From: a virus
Taxonomy: Duplodnaviria; Heunggongvirae; Uroviricota; Caudoviricetes
IMG/VR virus record: IMGVR_UViG_2563366990_000010
Coordinates: 1 to 20,094 of that record
Strand: one strand, 5' to 3'
Length of the DNA stretch: 20,094 nucleotides
Notes under the pieces: generated by a model
Databases searched by the model: none
The model's input: only the letters and a program-made list of their open reading frames with translations
Told to the model about the DNA's origin: nothing
Program-made: the position numbers and the translations under genes
Shown: positions 2,362-15,708 of the stretch, piece after piece
Numbering within the stretch: the stretch's first letter is position 1
Layout: every line of letters begins with the position of its first letter

Positions 2362-4430
2362 GATTTATCACCTCCGAAATTTTCAAGCCTGTTGGCAATC
2401 ATGATGGCGATATCAGGGATTGCTGGCGCTGTGGCTATACATGCGGGGTTGGCGCACAAACCATAGACGGCGGCAATCACGAGCTGTCTTTTCCAGTCGA
2501 GAGTTACTGGCTCAGAATTGGCGTCATCGCCGGACGTATCACTGCCTGGCTCGTTCTGAACAACGGTTTCGCCCTCCTGAGCGGCATCAACAGAGTTTTC
2601 CTGAATGATCTTCTCCTCAGTTTGTGCTGAGTCTTCTCCATCAGCGGCGTCATTTTCTCCAAAAGTTTCTGTGTAAGTGCTATCGCCCATTACCGCACTA
2701 CAGTCAGGGCAGTTACCCCCGCCAGTCTGACCACAGACGCGGCAGTTTTTTTCCAGCTCCGGTTGCGCTACTGGGGCTGGCTGTTGCTCTTCTGGCCCGT
2801 TTTGTTGCGTATCCGGGCTGTTTTGTCCCGCTTCTGGGGCAATTTGTTCCACTTTGGACTGATTCTGGTCCTCAGTGTCGCGAGCCTGGATCCCCTTAAT
2901 CCACTTCGGGTCGGTTGGGTCGCTGATGCCTTCAACGAATTCTCCTCGAGAAGCTGCCAGTAATTTGTCGGCATCGACTGGATTCCTGGGGGGAATGTTT
3001 TCCCTGGCTTTATTGAGTTCCTCCCGCAGCTTCTGGTATTTCGTTTCTACAGATGAGACATTTTCCAGTGATTGCGTGTCCTCATTATGTTTAACTGGAA
3101 TTTTTTCCACTGATTCAGGCGCTGCCTGTTCATTAGCCATTGTGTCTGATGCTTGCTGCTTTTCTTCATCGTTATGTTTCTCTTCTGTTGTTCCGCGCTG
3201 CGGCATCGGGGCTGATGAGCGACCGCAGGCAATTTCCACGATCTCCGGATCCGGGTTAGTGTGATCGGTTTCGGTTAACACTTTGTTGAGATACTCAGTC
3301 ACGCGTGCCGGGATGGCCTCAATGCCGATTGGTGCTTCTTTCACGGAAGCCACCACAATGGCGCGGGAATAATCCAGCCCACCGGGCATGGCGATAAATT
3401 TGTCGCGAAAAACAGAAAAGGGCGGCTTATTCTCTGACACGATTTCTTCAACGCGTTTTGCGTGTGCTGGGTGCAGGTTATAAATATCCACATCCATTGA
3501 ACGGGCCAGAACGCCGGTGGCTACATCTCGTGCGAGTGATGTCTTATCATGTTTGAATCCTTCACCACGATCGGTAATATTTCCGCCGCCAGCGTTAGCA
3601 CCGGAAGGCGTACGGGTAATGCCTGAAACATAATTTCCGTTCTGCCATTCTTTTGTCAGCAGGCCCTGATCAAGGTAGTCAGTTTTCATCCAGGTGGAAA
3701 TGAACTTGTCGAATTCAGCCGGGCTGATGCGATGATTTGCAGAGTGGGGGAATGCTTTCCCTACAGATTCAGCCAGGCGACTAAGGTGATAGTTCGTCAG
3801 TTTATCCAGTTCATGATGCGCGGCGCGCACAGCAGTAAGCAGGCTCTGAAGGTAACTGTCCTCTGTGTCCATCTCCATACGGATCACGTTATTGCGTTGT
3901 TCTGGTGTGGCATGATGCCGGTATTTTCCATCTTCATCTTTGCTGAATAAGAAGAGGTGAAGGAAGCGATGAGTAAGGCTCAGAGTGGCGACGGGAATTT
4001 CACACTCAGAACAGTCATCGTCGCTGTCCGGGGATTCGTTTTTCTCCACATCATCCGGAATAGTTCCGTCCGGGTCATCGTTGTCATCGCCAGCAGTTGT
4101 GGCATCTTCACCGTTGATGTTGTCATTGAAGGGTATAGCCATCATGGTGATGCCATCTTCCCCGCCTTTTTCATAGCGGTTGCAGAATTCAGTATCAAAC
4201 ACGCCTTCCGGTGGAAGGTCATTCACGACGGGGAAATTTACGCGAACGGGTTTTTTGAAATCATCCTCGTCGTAGCCTGCATCGTCCATGGCTGCAATGC
4301 AGCGGGAAACTGCGACAGAAAGTTTTCTGGCATCAGCCCAGAAAAAACCGCCTTTGATGCCAAGGCGTTTTCTGACTTTATCGTTTTTTGCTTCGCAGTG
4401 TAGTGCAAAAGTCTGTTTATCAGCGCTCAT
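2358..4430 (-). CDS. Large acidic hypothetical protein, 690 aa
   Basis: Uninterrupted 2073-nt ORF in the leftward early operon immediately upstream of gam, translationally coupled to it. Contains poly-acidic low-complexity tracts, a C-x2-C-x8-C-x2-C motif ([15 protein letters not shown]) and a hydrophobic C-terminal segment. I recognise no family. Confidence 0.8.
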
Positions 4431-13666: not shown

Positions 13667-14022
13667 TGGAAATAAAACCAGAAGATGAGTTAAGTAATAT
13701 TGTTTTATTTCCGGTAAAAGAGGATGACCCACGTAATCAGGTTAATTTTCTTTATGAGCCATCGGAAAGACCATATTGTCATCACGACTCTGTCCGGGTT
13801 GACGAAAAAGAGCGTCAGGTCCGCTGTAAAATCTGCGGTGCAGTTGTGGAGCCGTTTGACTGGATGCTCTCTGTGGCGAAAAGAGAAACCAGACTGGCAG
13901 ATGATGTAAGGCTATTGCGTCAGGAGGAACGGGAAAGGCGGAAAAATATAGAAAAGCTAATTCAGATTGAGCGTAACGCAAAAGCGCGGATGCGCAGAGC
14001 GACAAAATCCAGAACTGAATAA
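13667..14022 (+). CDS. Hypothetical protein with a zinc-ribbon-like motif, about 118 aa
   Basis: I place the start at the GTG at 13667, with AAGGAG 6 nt upstream; the ORF track starts at 13624. Contains CHH...C-x2-C and a basic C-terminus. Confidence 0.45.
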
Positions 14023-14117
14023 TTAAATTTAGCACTGTTAAAAATTTAATCCTTAACCGGAGGGATTTCTGTACCCTCAGAACATCAGGAGTCCGCCTGA
14101 AAGGGCAGTAATGAAAA

Positions 14118-14441
14118 ATGACTGAATTAACAAAAGAGCAATTAATCGAAGAAGCTAAATTAAAAATAGCGATTGCGAAATGCCACCCTAATTCAGAGAT
14201 GGCACGGGTAGAGGGTGAGTTATTCAAAATTGCACTGGCATCGCTGGTAGCAGAGCCAGCTGGTAAATTGCATGAATACAAACCAGTGGGATATCAGCGT
14301 CTGGTCGACGAGTTAACCATGCTGGTAAAGCAGTTAGCCTGGCAACTGAGGAAAGCGAAACCGGGCTGCAAATTACCGGATAAAGCGATGGACTATCTGG
14401 AGCGAAACGGACTTATAAGCGTGGAGGATGTTTTACGATGA
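14118..14441 (+). CDS. Hypothetical protein, 107 aa
   Basis: ORF with a helical-looking translation; its stop overlaps the start of a small hydrophobic ORF. Confidence 0.5.
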   Translation: MTELTKEQLIEEAKLKIAIAKCHPNSEMARVEGELFKIALASLVAEPAGKLHEYKPVGYQRLVDELTMLVKQLAWQLRKAKPGCKLPDKAMDYLERNGLISVEDVLR

Positions 14442-14520
14442 CCTGGCCTGAGGCGTTCACAACGGCAGGAATTGCACTGGCGGTGGCGCTGGTGGAGTAT
14501 TCGATTTGCCGCTGGGGTTG
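14437..14520 (+). CDS. Candidate small membrane peptide, 27 aa (not in the supplied ORF track)
   Basis: ATG at 14437 overlaps the upstream stop (ATGA). Translation MTWPEAFTTAGIALAVALVEYSICRWG has a single hydrophobic helix; the stop codon lies inside the -35 of the downstream promoter. Confidence 0.3.
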
Positions 14521-14546
14521 ACGTAATTACTTATCCGGGATTATAT
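14517..14546 (+). promoter_or_regulatory. Candidate sigma-70 promoter for the first antirepressor gene
   Basis: TTGACG (14517-14522), 18-bp spacer, TATATT (14541-14546). Same architecture as the promoter at 15463-15492. Confidence 0.5.
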
Positions 14547-14602
14547 TCTTCGCACGGTCGAGTTGGCCGTCGGGATTGGAACCCCGGATAGAGACCGCGA
14601 CA

Positions 14603-14628
14603 AACACACGCCGCGAGCGTGTTTTTTA
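14603..14628 (+). terminator. Leader terminator / attenuator-like hairpin about 55 nt downstream of the promoter
   Basis: Stem ACACGC / GCGTGT with loop CGCGA (14605-14621) followed by TTTTTTATT, located about 160 nt upstream of the antirepressor ATG. Confidence 0.5.
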
Positions 14629-14788
14629 TTGTCGTATGCACGCGCACATCTGAATTATGGTGGGGCGCATGGGGGAGCTGAAAAGCTCGCCGGTCGGTTT
14701 CCCGGTAGTTCCAACCCTGTGCGTCTCACCACCCGATGATTGGAACCTTACGGTGGTGATAGTTTAGAAACCACTAGAGGGCGTCATT

Positions 14789-15454
14789 ATGACAACTCAA
14801 ATCTCTGTTGAAACCATCTCCCCGATTACCCATAACCAGATTCTTGTTATTACCACCGAGCTTTTGGCACAACTTTATGGCACCGAAACTAATAACATCA
14901 AAGTGAACTATACGCGCAATGCCGAGCGTTTTGTTTGCGGGAAGCACTACTTCAAATTGGAAGGGGCTGAATTGCGGGAATTTAAGAACAAGGTTACTCA
15001 AAGTAACTTAGTTGCACCGCGTACAAAGCACCTCATCCTCTGGACAGAACGCGGCGCAGCCCGTCATGCAAAAATGCTCGAAACCGATCGAGCGTGGGAA
15101 GTATTCGAAAAACTGGAAGACTGCTATTTCAGCCTGGGAAAAACAATACAAACCGAACAGCAGTCGCAGATTCAGCCACAATTCACAGCCGAGGAAATCA
15201 TCCTCCTTTGCTACATGCAGCTCTGGATGGAAAAAGCCCAGAACATCAGCAAACACCTGTATCCCATTATGAAAGAGCTGAACTCCTCATACACGAACAA
15301 GCTGTATGACATTGCGTTTGAAACCATCTACATGGTGACGAAGAACAGAGACGCGCTACTGCGGGAGGCGGCACGGCTTGACCAGTCAAGTTTCGTTATC
15401 CAGCGGGCCAGACCAATGCTGAAAAGCCTGCGGGCAAGACAATTCGAGTTTTAA
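14789..15454 (+). CDS. Phage antirepressor-like protein, ORF6N-type N-terminal domain with a shared C-terminal domain, 221 aa
   Basis: The N-terminal region resembles ORF6N/KilA-N-type antirepressor domains; AGAGGG ribosome-binding site. The C-terminal 95 aa are about 65 percent identical to the C-terminus of the next gene. Confidence 0.7.
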   Translation: MTTQISVETISPITHNQILVITTELLAQLYGTETNNIKVNYTRNAERFVCGKHYFKLEGAELREFKNKVTQSNLVAPRTKHLILWTERGAARHAKMLETDRAWEVFEKLEDCYFSLGKTIQTEQQSQIQPQFTAEEIILLCYMQLWMEKAQNISKHLYPIMKELNSSYTNKLYDIAFETIYMVTKNRDALLREAARLDQSSFVIQRARPMLKSLRARQFEF

Positions 15455-15462
15455 GGCCAGAT

Positions 15463-15492
15463 TTGACAAATCCGCATTAGCGGGGATATATT
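15463..15492 (+). promoter_or_regulatory. Candidate strong sigma-70 promoter for the second antirepressor gene
   Basis: Consensus TTGACA (15463-15468), 18-bp spacer, TATATT (15487-15492). Confidence 0.55.
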
Positions 15493-15708
15493 CCGCTCCA
15501 TGGTGCTGAACACACCTTCGAAAGCGGAAACCGCGCCCGTCAGTCATGCGGATTTTTTATGTCCATTTTTCAGATATGGTCGGGTAGCGCGTATACCGAA
15601 AAACAGCCGCAAGGCTAAGGATGCGGGCCGAACTTTCGACGGTGTTCAAGTACCCGACCGCCCTGCTGAACACGGGGTGATCTGAACGAATCGAAAGGAC
15701 ATAAAACT

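Follow-up and report, generated by a model that had tools for sequence, protein, structure and literature searches.

The 20,094-nucleotide (nt) stretch analysed here (hereafter the window; positions 1 to 20,094 of the IMG/VR virus record IMGVR_UViG_2563366990_000010) carries, at the 3′ end of a gene for a 107-amino-acid (aa) protein, a small open reading frame (ORF) of 27 codons that is the subject of this report. As read from the sequence, its start codon ATG occupies 14438-14440 and its stop codon TGA 14519-14521. The first-pass annotation of this DNA had the ORF and its peptide right but set it one base too far left, at 14437-14520. The features on which the argument turns are these:

14118..14441, + strand: upstream 107-aa gene; its TGA (14439-14441) overlaps the ATG of the small ORF (ATGA)
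14423..14427, + strand: GGAGG Shine-Dalgarno (SD) sequence of the small ORF, within the 3′ end of the upstream gene and 10 nt before the ATG
14438..14521, + strand: 27-codon ORF plus stop; translation MTWPEAFTTAGIALAVALVEYSICRWG; member of an unnamed 'WPEAF...RWG' family of phage micro-proteins
14518..14547, + strand: isrK-operon promoter, TTGACG-18 nt-TATATT (10/12 matches); part of the neighbouring module, outside the small gene

The overlap of the ATG with the stop of the preceding gene, already pointed out in the first-pass annotation, is seen with the 107-aa ORF at 14118..14441, whose product has a C-terminal module common to phrog_660/924 proteins; it would be the layout expected for translational coupling. 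Comparison over 701 nt shows no difference between the window and a prophage of E. coli 06-00048 (RefSeq NZ_CP015229.1). The PGAP annotation of that record has no feature between the 107-aa gene and the antirepressor gene, so that the small ORF is indeed unannotated, as had been claimed. Taken alone in the window, the ORF is mildly unusual: there are 118 ATG ORFs of 20-50 aa, seven of them hydrophobic, and just one of these seven, the small ORF, also has an SD-like motif. The decisive evidence is comparative and lies in its conservation.

Conservation as a discrete module

A blastn search with a 131-nt query around the ORF gives 2262 matching sites, spread over 1449 of 5426 complete E. coli genomes. 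The alignments start at the ATG (query position 24) and stop at codon 27 or at the stop codon (query 103/107); that is, the breaks in homology are the edges of the ORF. The gene at the upstream edge of these matches varies, being an unnamed hypothetical protein, a DUF551 gene or a gene labelled sugar O-methyltransferase. In 126 copies that were fetched with their surroundings, the upstream genes are of three main unrelated C-terminal types, with the upstream stop always in the +1 frame of the ATGA and GGAGG always upstream. This GGAGG precedes the ATG in every upstream context, which reads GGAGGATGTTTTACGATGA, or CAGGAGGTGAATC(A/G)ATGA. The same ATGA overlap also follows DUF551, 933W ORF-34c-type, Ea22-type and Av-05 genes. 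Specifically, the small ORF lies directly 3′ of an ea-region gene (DUF551, Ea22, EaA or related), with a 4-nt overlap, and this includes the copy in the window.

The downstream side is likewise variable. The 126 copies are followed by hok/sok modules (56), by strong and mostly terminator-like hairpins (56), by TTGACG-N17-19-TATATT promoters (8) or by other sequences (6), and over all of these junctions the stop is held at codon 28, as TAA, TGA or TAG. A hok/sok module of the kind found in the window stands directly 3′ of the small ORF in ~45% of the other prophages. Shiga-toxin phages of the 933W and VT2-Sakai type are among the carriers.

A scan of GTDB representative genomes for MTWPEAF[TA] returned only E. 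coli, Shigella flexneri and one 431-bp contig assigned to 'Xanthomonas pisi' (NZ_JPLE01000323.1), which consists of the small ORF plus hok. Since the DNA of that contig is that of a 933W-like E. coli phage, with hok and 50% GC, it has probably entered the Xanthomonas pisi assembly as a contaminant. An 'Actinobacillus phage' record (PP818812.1) contains a copy 90.7% identical to the E. coli ORF. The family restricted to Escherichia that the GTDB scan suggested was overturned when a profile search gave wider and more diverged relatives, described below. Within K-12 MG1655, the small ORF was not found in the Qin or Rac prophage regions (the search covered these, not DLP12 or e14), and because it is absent from them, the K-12 ribosome-profiling and small-protein catalogues cannot cover it.

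Selection on the reading frame

The first-pass annotation had staked the ORF on whether its frame is conserved in related prophages, and the frame is conserved: 116 of 122 copies on viral contigs have exactly 27 codons. Of the six others, two have a 6-nt deletion, two are extended by loss of the stop, one is frameshifted and one is an unrelated sequence of high GC content. Variants with a helix of different length (25-35 aa; P0040, P0047-P0051, P0053, P0055, L030 and L110) differ by gain or loss, at mid-helix, of GCN-NTG hexanucleotide units (AM/AV repeats). Within E. coli, intactness of the ORF is not significant by itself, as divergence is low; one of 50 changes creates a stop.

The pattern of substitution is more informative. 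Among the viral copies, variable sites at codon positions 1, 2 and 3 number 10, 9 and 20, and the summed minor-allele counts are 29, 34 and 154. The formal test was confined to codons 10-27, the region free of constraint from the search pattern; there, variants present in at least three haplotypes are synonymous in 12 cases and non-synonymous in 6, where 28% synonymous is expected (p=7e-4). This excess is confined to the frame of the ORF, with none in frames +1 and +2, and the common replacements are conservative (V10A/I, M14L, V16A, V19M, R25S). Furthermore, pairwise ratios of non-synonymous to synonymous substitution rates (dN/dS; NG86) between diverged relatives and the E. coli consensus are 0.13 (dS 1.73), 0.16, 0.40, 0.43, 0.53 and 0.56. 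Judged from these comparisons, the small ORF is a true coding gene, and purifying selection acts on its protein: its behaviour as a module, the kept frame, the frame-specific synonymous excess and the diverged relatives that retain its motif together mark it as a real gene and not a chance ORF.

Diverged relatives define a family

Relatives were recovered by searching 1.84 billion representatives with a profile and by a word-index search with an alignment, the query being a natural 40-aa read-through variant and later an alignment. Those with the same motif include MNWPEAFAITGVAMAIAFLVYVICRWGKNVRRD, MNITNWPEAFTYIGCAFAIAIIFYSMFRWG, MEISWPEAIMWIGIAFAAALAIYSIMRWGD, MNWPEAFATVGVAFAVVLFFYILFKYIERAIK and METGMNWPEAFTAVGVVWAVAFVIWRFFKDLFSKGLDE; they come from loci whose GC contents are 28%, 36%, 48%, 56% and 58%, and an SD of its own precedes the ORF in all six relatives inspected. 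The motif of the family can be written x-W-P-[ED]-A-[FIL]-x3-G-x-A-x-A-x-A ... [YFW]-[SA]-x-[CFM]-[RK]-W-G, over ~25-35 aa, or more narrowly x-W-P-E-A-F-x3-G-x-A-x-A-x-A-(hydrophobic)-[YFW]-S-x-[CF]-[RK]-W-G; the window peptide matches the wider form everywhere but at position 20, where it has E and the others a hydrophobic residue. By this motif, the window ORF belongs to an undescribed and unnamed family of phage micro-proteins of ~27 residues.

The neighbourhood can be kept along with the motif. For a 33-aa relative, the order DUF1627 - Ea22 - x - DUF551 - ORF (again with a 4-nt overlap) - hok is retained; at a diverged locus (L134, 3119-3223), a second, unrelated hydrophobic ORF of 34 aa (MSDDISLAMEGALAVVAVVGVYCLVVFLMDRLGN) lies between the WPEAF ORF and hok. 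There is a second abundant subfamily in enterobacteria (MNWPEAFTAVGVAIAVAFILYSLFRWG), to which 71 of the 80 loci kept in one search belong, and in BP-4795-type phages it sits in the leftward early (PL) operon, between DUF551 and DUF4222-xis-int. The family also reaches a virulent phage, Av-05 of the Vequintavirinae, where MTWPEAFTTVGVVMAVAFAVYSVCRWG occupies an unannotated gap, again with ...GAATCAATGAC...

Several more distant or unusual occurrences were seen. On two viral contigs of 131 kb and 107 kb (L217 and L218, both 4001-4078), a 25-aa relative, MSWPEAFATVGCAFAFVAFIWILTR, stands directly before a tRNA-like sequence, and it is on this basis that the family is placed also in large phages that carry tRNA genes. 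A high-GC viral contig (L122; GC 0.71) has on its minus strand, at 2245-2397, a 50-aa ORF starting MTWPEAFTTVG; it has 4-nt overlaps with its neighbours, is flanked by two ORFs with hydrophobic segments and lies downstream of likely structural genes, and it may be a distant member of the family in a lysis-like cluster. There are also natural in-frame fusions (L135, 156-776; P0084 and P0089), Ead/Ea22-like proteins that have the micro-protein as their C-terminal tail, ...PPLENKK-MSWPDAFAIVGVAMSIALIVFAIYRWG*.

Predicted product

The first-pass annotation had read the peptide as a single hydrophobic transmembrane helix, and as a prediction this is borne out. The best 19-residue Kyte-Doolittle mean is 2.11 for the majority variant vs 1.68 for the window copy, and AlphaFold2, run with an alignment on a 31-aa natural variant in place of the 27-aa peptide, returns a single helix over residues 3-30 (pLDDT 93.7). 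The difference in hydrophobicity has a simple origin. Codon 20 of the window copy (GAG, 14495-14497) encodes Glu, where 56 of 56 non-redundant relatives have V, L, I or F, and because of this V20E change the window copy is only borderline hydrophobic for a transmembrane call. The variant is also found, as P0013, on nine contigs; the window copy may be weakened by it and is perhaps unrepresentative of the family.

The helix carries a ladder of small residues, G11-x-A13-x-A15-x-A17, between an acidic N-terminal cap (MTWPE) and a basic aromatic C-terminal cap ([RK]-W-G). Alanine is found at A13, A15 and A17 in 46, 51 and 46 of the 56 non-redundant relatives, and in an independent alignment (A5) the W, P, E, A and G are invariant. 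The predicted single hydrophobic helix and the conserved coding frame also favour the class of small membrane proteins, to which the peptide had been provisionally assigned.

The search of small-protein families that had been recommended places the peptide in none: it matches no model in Pfam, PHROG or NCBIfam, and 18 relatives compared with Pfam and PHROGs give nothing significant, only weak look-alikes of transmembrane segments. Neither the peptide nor the 18 relatives match the Hok/Gef profile (PF01848). The gene is almost never annotated; scattered NCBI entries for the peptide exist under the names 'bacteriophage protein', 'hypothetical protein', 'putative prophage protein' and 'DUF551 domain-containing protein, partial'. 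Identity with DUF551 (PF04448) was rejected, the peptide being without a Pfam match, and the last label, on some copies of 25-30 aa, is misleading and appears to be carried over from the upstream gene. On the opposite strand, long ORFs have been annotated across the small ORF and its upstream gene in two phages (Min27 ORF82, at 1173-1745 of L123; Stx2 phage I ORF-38, at 996-1745 of L124); both are probably spurious calls.

Prophage surroundings and the isrK promoter

The window is a lambdoid prophage with a cI-like repressor on the minus strand and, on the plus strand, Cro, CII, a replication protein, a DnaC-like loader, DUF1627 and further genes. The small ORF is part of the rightward early operon, 3′ of cro, cII and the replication genes, and no above-chance terminator was found between cro and the small ORF. 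Further along, the window contains the following:

14554-14627: isrK RNA (Rfam match), beginning 7 nt past the -10 hexamer of the isrK-operon promoter
14653-14736: C4-family RNA (Rfam match)
14789-15454: ORF6N/P22_AR_C antirepressor gene
15578-15667: sRNA-Xcc1 (Rfam match)
15709-16341: Bro-N/P22_AR_C gene
19776-20094: hok/sok locus, with sok at 19776-19947 (Rfam, 101 bits) and a hok-type ORF that runs past the end of the window

The span 14554-16341 thus holds two tandem antirepressor modules, each with structured RNA ahead of it: isrK and C4 before the ORF6N/P22_AR_C gene, and sRNA-Xcc1 before the Bro-N/P22_AR_C gene. The C4 match overlaps the position that orf45/STnc1160 occupies in Gifsy-1. 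Beyond these modules (16396-17540), a NinB pseudogene fragment at ~16396-16515 is followed by a hypothetical gene and then by an intact NinB at 17139-17540, which suggests an insertion or duplication where the nin region starts.

The first-pass annotation had placed the TGA of the small ORF inside the TTGACG -35 hexamer of the 'first antirepressor promoter', and there it is: a promoter scan finds TTGACG at 14518-14523 as the first hexamer of the sole promoter-like site in 13900-15000. The -10 hexamer ends at 14547 and the isrK match runs from 14554, the expected transcript start for a TTGACG-18-TATATT promoter, and because isrK begins where its transcript would start, this promoter is the isrK-operon promoter. 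In Gifsy-1, PisrK drives both the 77-nt IsrK RNA and a read-through isrK-orf45-anrP mRNA (PMC4825925). The homologue of that system is the window DNA directly downstream (promoter, isrK, the C4-like/orf45 region and the ORF6N antirepressor); the small ORF, in contrast, is upstream of the promoter, lies outside that system and is not orf45.

It is worth considering whether an overlap of this kind could be functional, with ribosome termination or read-through transcription at the -35 tuning the expression of isrK and the antirepressor. No terminator separates the ORF from the promoter, so that early-operon transcription must cross PisrK, and a second, different module (in L003) also begins TTGACG-18-TATATT and is joined at the same point. 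However, just 8 of the 126 ORF copies abut a TTGACG promoter, the others mostly ending GGA TAA; isrK is absent beside >90% of the small-ORF copies and is also present without the small ORF; and translation termination works on RNA whereas a -35 works on DNA. The intact promoter exists without the ORF: phiSTEC1589, PA2 and ArgO145 each have GTTGACG-N18-TATATT ahead of isrK, with unrelated DNA on the upstream side, including divergent toxin-antitoxin genes, and in ArgO145 the small ORF lies ~700 bp further upstream of the isrK promoter, with GGA TAA as its end and a hairpin after it. We therefore regard a functional overlap as extremely improbable. Because the same promoter heads isrK modules with unrelated upstream DNA and most ORF copies end in TAA, the overlap of stop and -35 arose incidentally where recombination joined two modules at a gene boundary, as is typical of mosaic phage genomes, and not a design feature. 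At the junction in the window, the ORF closes with GGT TGA (Gly and stop), and the length of 27 codons is kept. For the same reasons (isrK with unrelated upstream DNA, 8 of 126 copies abutting the promoter), the small ORF was rejected as a constant component of the isrK-orf45-anrP locus. One consequence of the junction in the window is that early-operon transcription can run directly into isrK and the antirepressor.

A proposed role and its alternatives

The reading that we favour is that the small ORF is a coding gene for a one-helix membrane micro-protein, coupled to an ea gene and made early in lytic growth, which acts through a membrane partner, the overlap with the promoter being incidental; we give this reading as a whole a probability of roughly 0.6. 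Ribosomes finishing the upstream ea-region gene would re-initiate on the small ORF, so that the peptide would be made during early lytic transcription and would be silent in a lysogen repressed by cI. It would then insert in the inner membrane as a single helix, and the positive-inside rule predicts an N-out/C-in topology with the acidic MTWPE facing outward and the basic R-W-G in the cytoplasm. The GxxxA-type face formed by G11, A13, A15 and A17, together with the conserved juxtamembrane caps, could mediate helix-helix binding to a host inner-membrane protein or a phage protein, and it would be this binding of a partner, and not non-specific membrane damage, through which the peptide acts. 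Because a copy of the family is found in the virulent phage Av-05, a role in lytic growth is favoured over one in lysogen maintenance. Interference with a host inner-membrane protein, for example in the exclusion of superinfecting DNA, would be a plausible role. The broader proposal, that the family targets a host inner-membrane protein early in infection, be it a DNA-entry transporter or channel (superinfection exclusion) or a component of the envelope or division machinery, we offer as a tentative idea that we think somewhat unlikely to hold in full; if true, the family would be a new class of host-takeover factor in phages, left unreported by automated annotation.

Several observations weigh against the favoured reading or limit the evidence for it. 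Rare copies are frameshifted (L072, vB_EcoS-689R5 with a 1-nt deletion, and P0062-P0067). When all distinct mutations are counted, the synonymous to non-synonymous ratio softens to 21:29 (p=0.02), and in the closest clade selection is just moderate, with dN/dS ~0.5 vs the 933W type. In-frame insertions and deletions were rejected as a sign of selection, as slippage of a hexanucleotide is in frame by construction. Likewise, N-terminal conservation in the viral set was partly imposed by the search pattern, and the invariance of W3 and G11 among the 56 relatives was imposed by the regular expression used. The tolerated variation in helix length fits a precise helix-helix interface less easily. 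Finally, the peptide is absent from the supplements of a paper on enterohaemorrhagic E. coli translatomics (PMC4765031), and the searchable literature has no relevant paper on the peptide or the WPEAF motif.

The most sceptical alternative is that there is no gene at all, and that the conserved segment is a non-coding linker or boundary for mosaic recombination, or a regulatory DNA or RNA element, that is open by chance. The sharp ends of the homology blocks and the position of the element at module junctions would suit such a linker, as would the low E. coli divergence that leaves ORF intactness non-significant on its own. Against this stand the synonymous excess limited to the ORF frame, dN/dS values as low as 0.13, an SD kept ahead of each relative inspected, and a protein motif that persists in loci of 28%, 36%, 56-58% and 71% GC although their DNA has been rewritten. 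Nor is there an RNA structure signal: the ORF region folds no better than shuffled sequences (z -0.8, sense), its antisense fold is not exceptional (z -1.76), Rfam has no match over the ORF on either of the two strands, even with a cutoff of E<=10, and on these grounds an RNA element was rejected. We consider a non-coding origin barely credible. If the ORF is coding, the first-pass suggestion of a type I toxin deserves attention, that is, a membrane-depolarising peptide whose translation is restrained by a linked antisense RNA. The size, the one hydrophobic helix and the short polar ends do resemble IbsC, ShoB, DinQ and TisB (PMC12648545), and the prophage location, often beside hok/sok, is where such a toxin might be sought. 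Nonetheless, the suggestion did not survive comparison: the small ORF is without a promoter or leader of its own and has the 4-nt overlap with the preceding gene in all contexts; no minus-strand promoter-like sites were found in 13900-15000; and the absence of overlapping Rfam RNAs and the unexceptional antisense fold (z -1.76) apply here as well. Both flanks are interchangeable, with no linked RNA gene that co-travels, and this leaves no room for a linked antitoxin RNA; moreover, the family is present in a virulent phage, where addiction logic fails. We regard a type I toxin as very unlikely.

A peptide that needs no antitoxin is less easily dismissed. The product could be an early host-killing or membrane-permeabilising peptide, with a kil-like or YdfD-like function in host shut-off or a function in lysis timing, that oligomerises through its GxxxA face to form a leak or pore in lytic growth. 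The gene lies in an early lytic operon, temperate and virulent phages both carry the family, the small-residue ladder could drive self-assembly and the variation in helix length is tolerated; in addition, the high-GC relative on L122 lies among transmembrane ORFs just past structural genes, and there are weak, non-significant matches to glycine-zipper and transmembrane models. Yet the WPEAF and [RK]-W-G caps are strongly conserved in loci from 28% to 58% GC, which is more typical of a specific interaction, and the gene lies outside the lysis cassettes of enterobacterial phages, so that we think a permeabilising function improbable, if worth keeping in mind. A different possibility looks to the neighbouring gene: the peptide might be a detachable membrane anchor for the upstream protein (Ea22, DUF551 and EaA types), made in equimolar amounts through coupling and tethering or regulating a soluble protein. 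Strict adjacency and the 4-nt overlap with ea-region genes in all lineages examined are what this would predict, and two independent relatives are fused in frame to Ead/Ea22-like proteins (P0084; P0089/L135). However, the upstream partners come from at least four unrelated families with no shared domain, the fusions are rare (one contig each), and the last ~5 upstream codons are common just because they hold the SD of the small ORF. An anchor role is thus doubtful in our view, and we return to a membrane micro-protein with a partner of its own as the preferred reading.

Significance and comparison with known systems

From the selection on the gene and its sharply conserved motif, the micro-protein presumably does something in early lytic growth. 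What is new here is an unnamed family; the kind of protein, a small membrane protein, is already known, and so far nothing about it is mechanistically surprising. The gene is nonetheless very common in the prophages of pathogenic E. coli, including Shiga-toxin phages, and is carried by roughly one in four complete E. coli genomes. Genes of this length are in practice too short for automated annotation, and the micro-protein is covered by none of the curated family models. The analysis corrects the 'DUF551 domain-containing protein, partial' labels and the spurious antisense ORFs in Min27 and Stx2 phage I, and it leaves existing knowledge of the isrK/antirepressor switch unchanged.

It is informative to set the micro-protein beside the small proteins that it most resembles. 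Lambda Kil, Rac KilR, Qin DicB and YdfD are small accessory proteins of early lytic operons that are dispensable for growth, YdfD being membrane-anchored. They are of 47-73 aa, are mostly soluble save for the YdfD anchor, and have FtsZ, MinC and the isoprenoid pathway as their targets; to our knowledge, the micro-protein has no homology to any of the four. With the type I toxins (Hok/Gef PF01848, IbsC, ShoB, DinQ, TisB), it shares the character of a short hydrophobic helical prophage peptide that is often next to hok/sok, but it differs in having no antisense RNA, promoter of its own, structured leader or Hok/Gef match, and in occurring also in a virulent phage. The closest likeness is to small membrane proteins of bacteria and phages such as AcrZ, MgtS, PmrR and KdpF (PMC12648545), which are of the same size class (<50 aa), with one predicted helix and very short termini, and with which the micro-protein shares small-xxx-small packing residues and a history of being missed by annotation through its length. 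No sequence relationship of the micro-protein to any named member of this group was found in Pfam, NCBIfam or PHROGs, and it is further set apart by being phage-borne and by its predicted coupling to ea-region genes.

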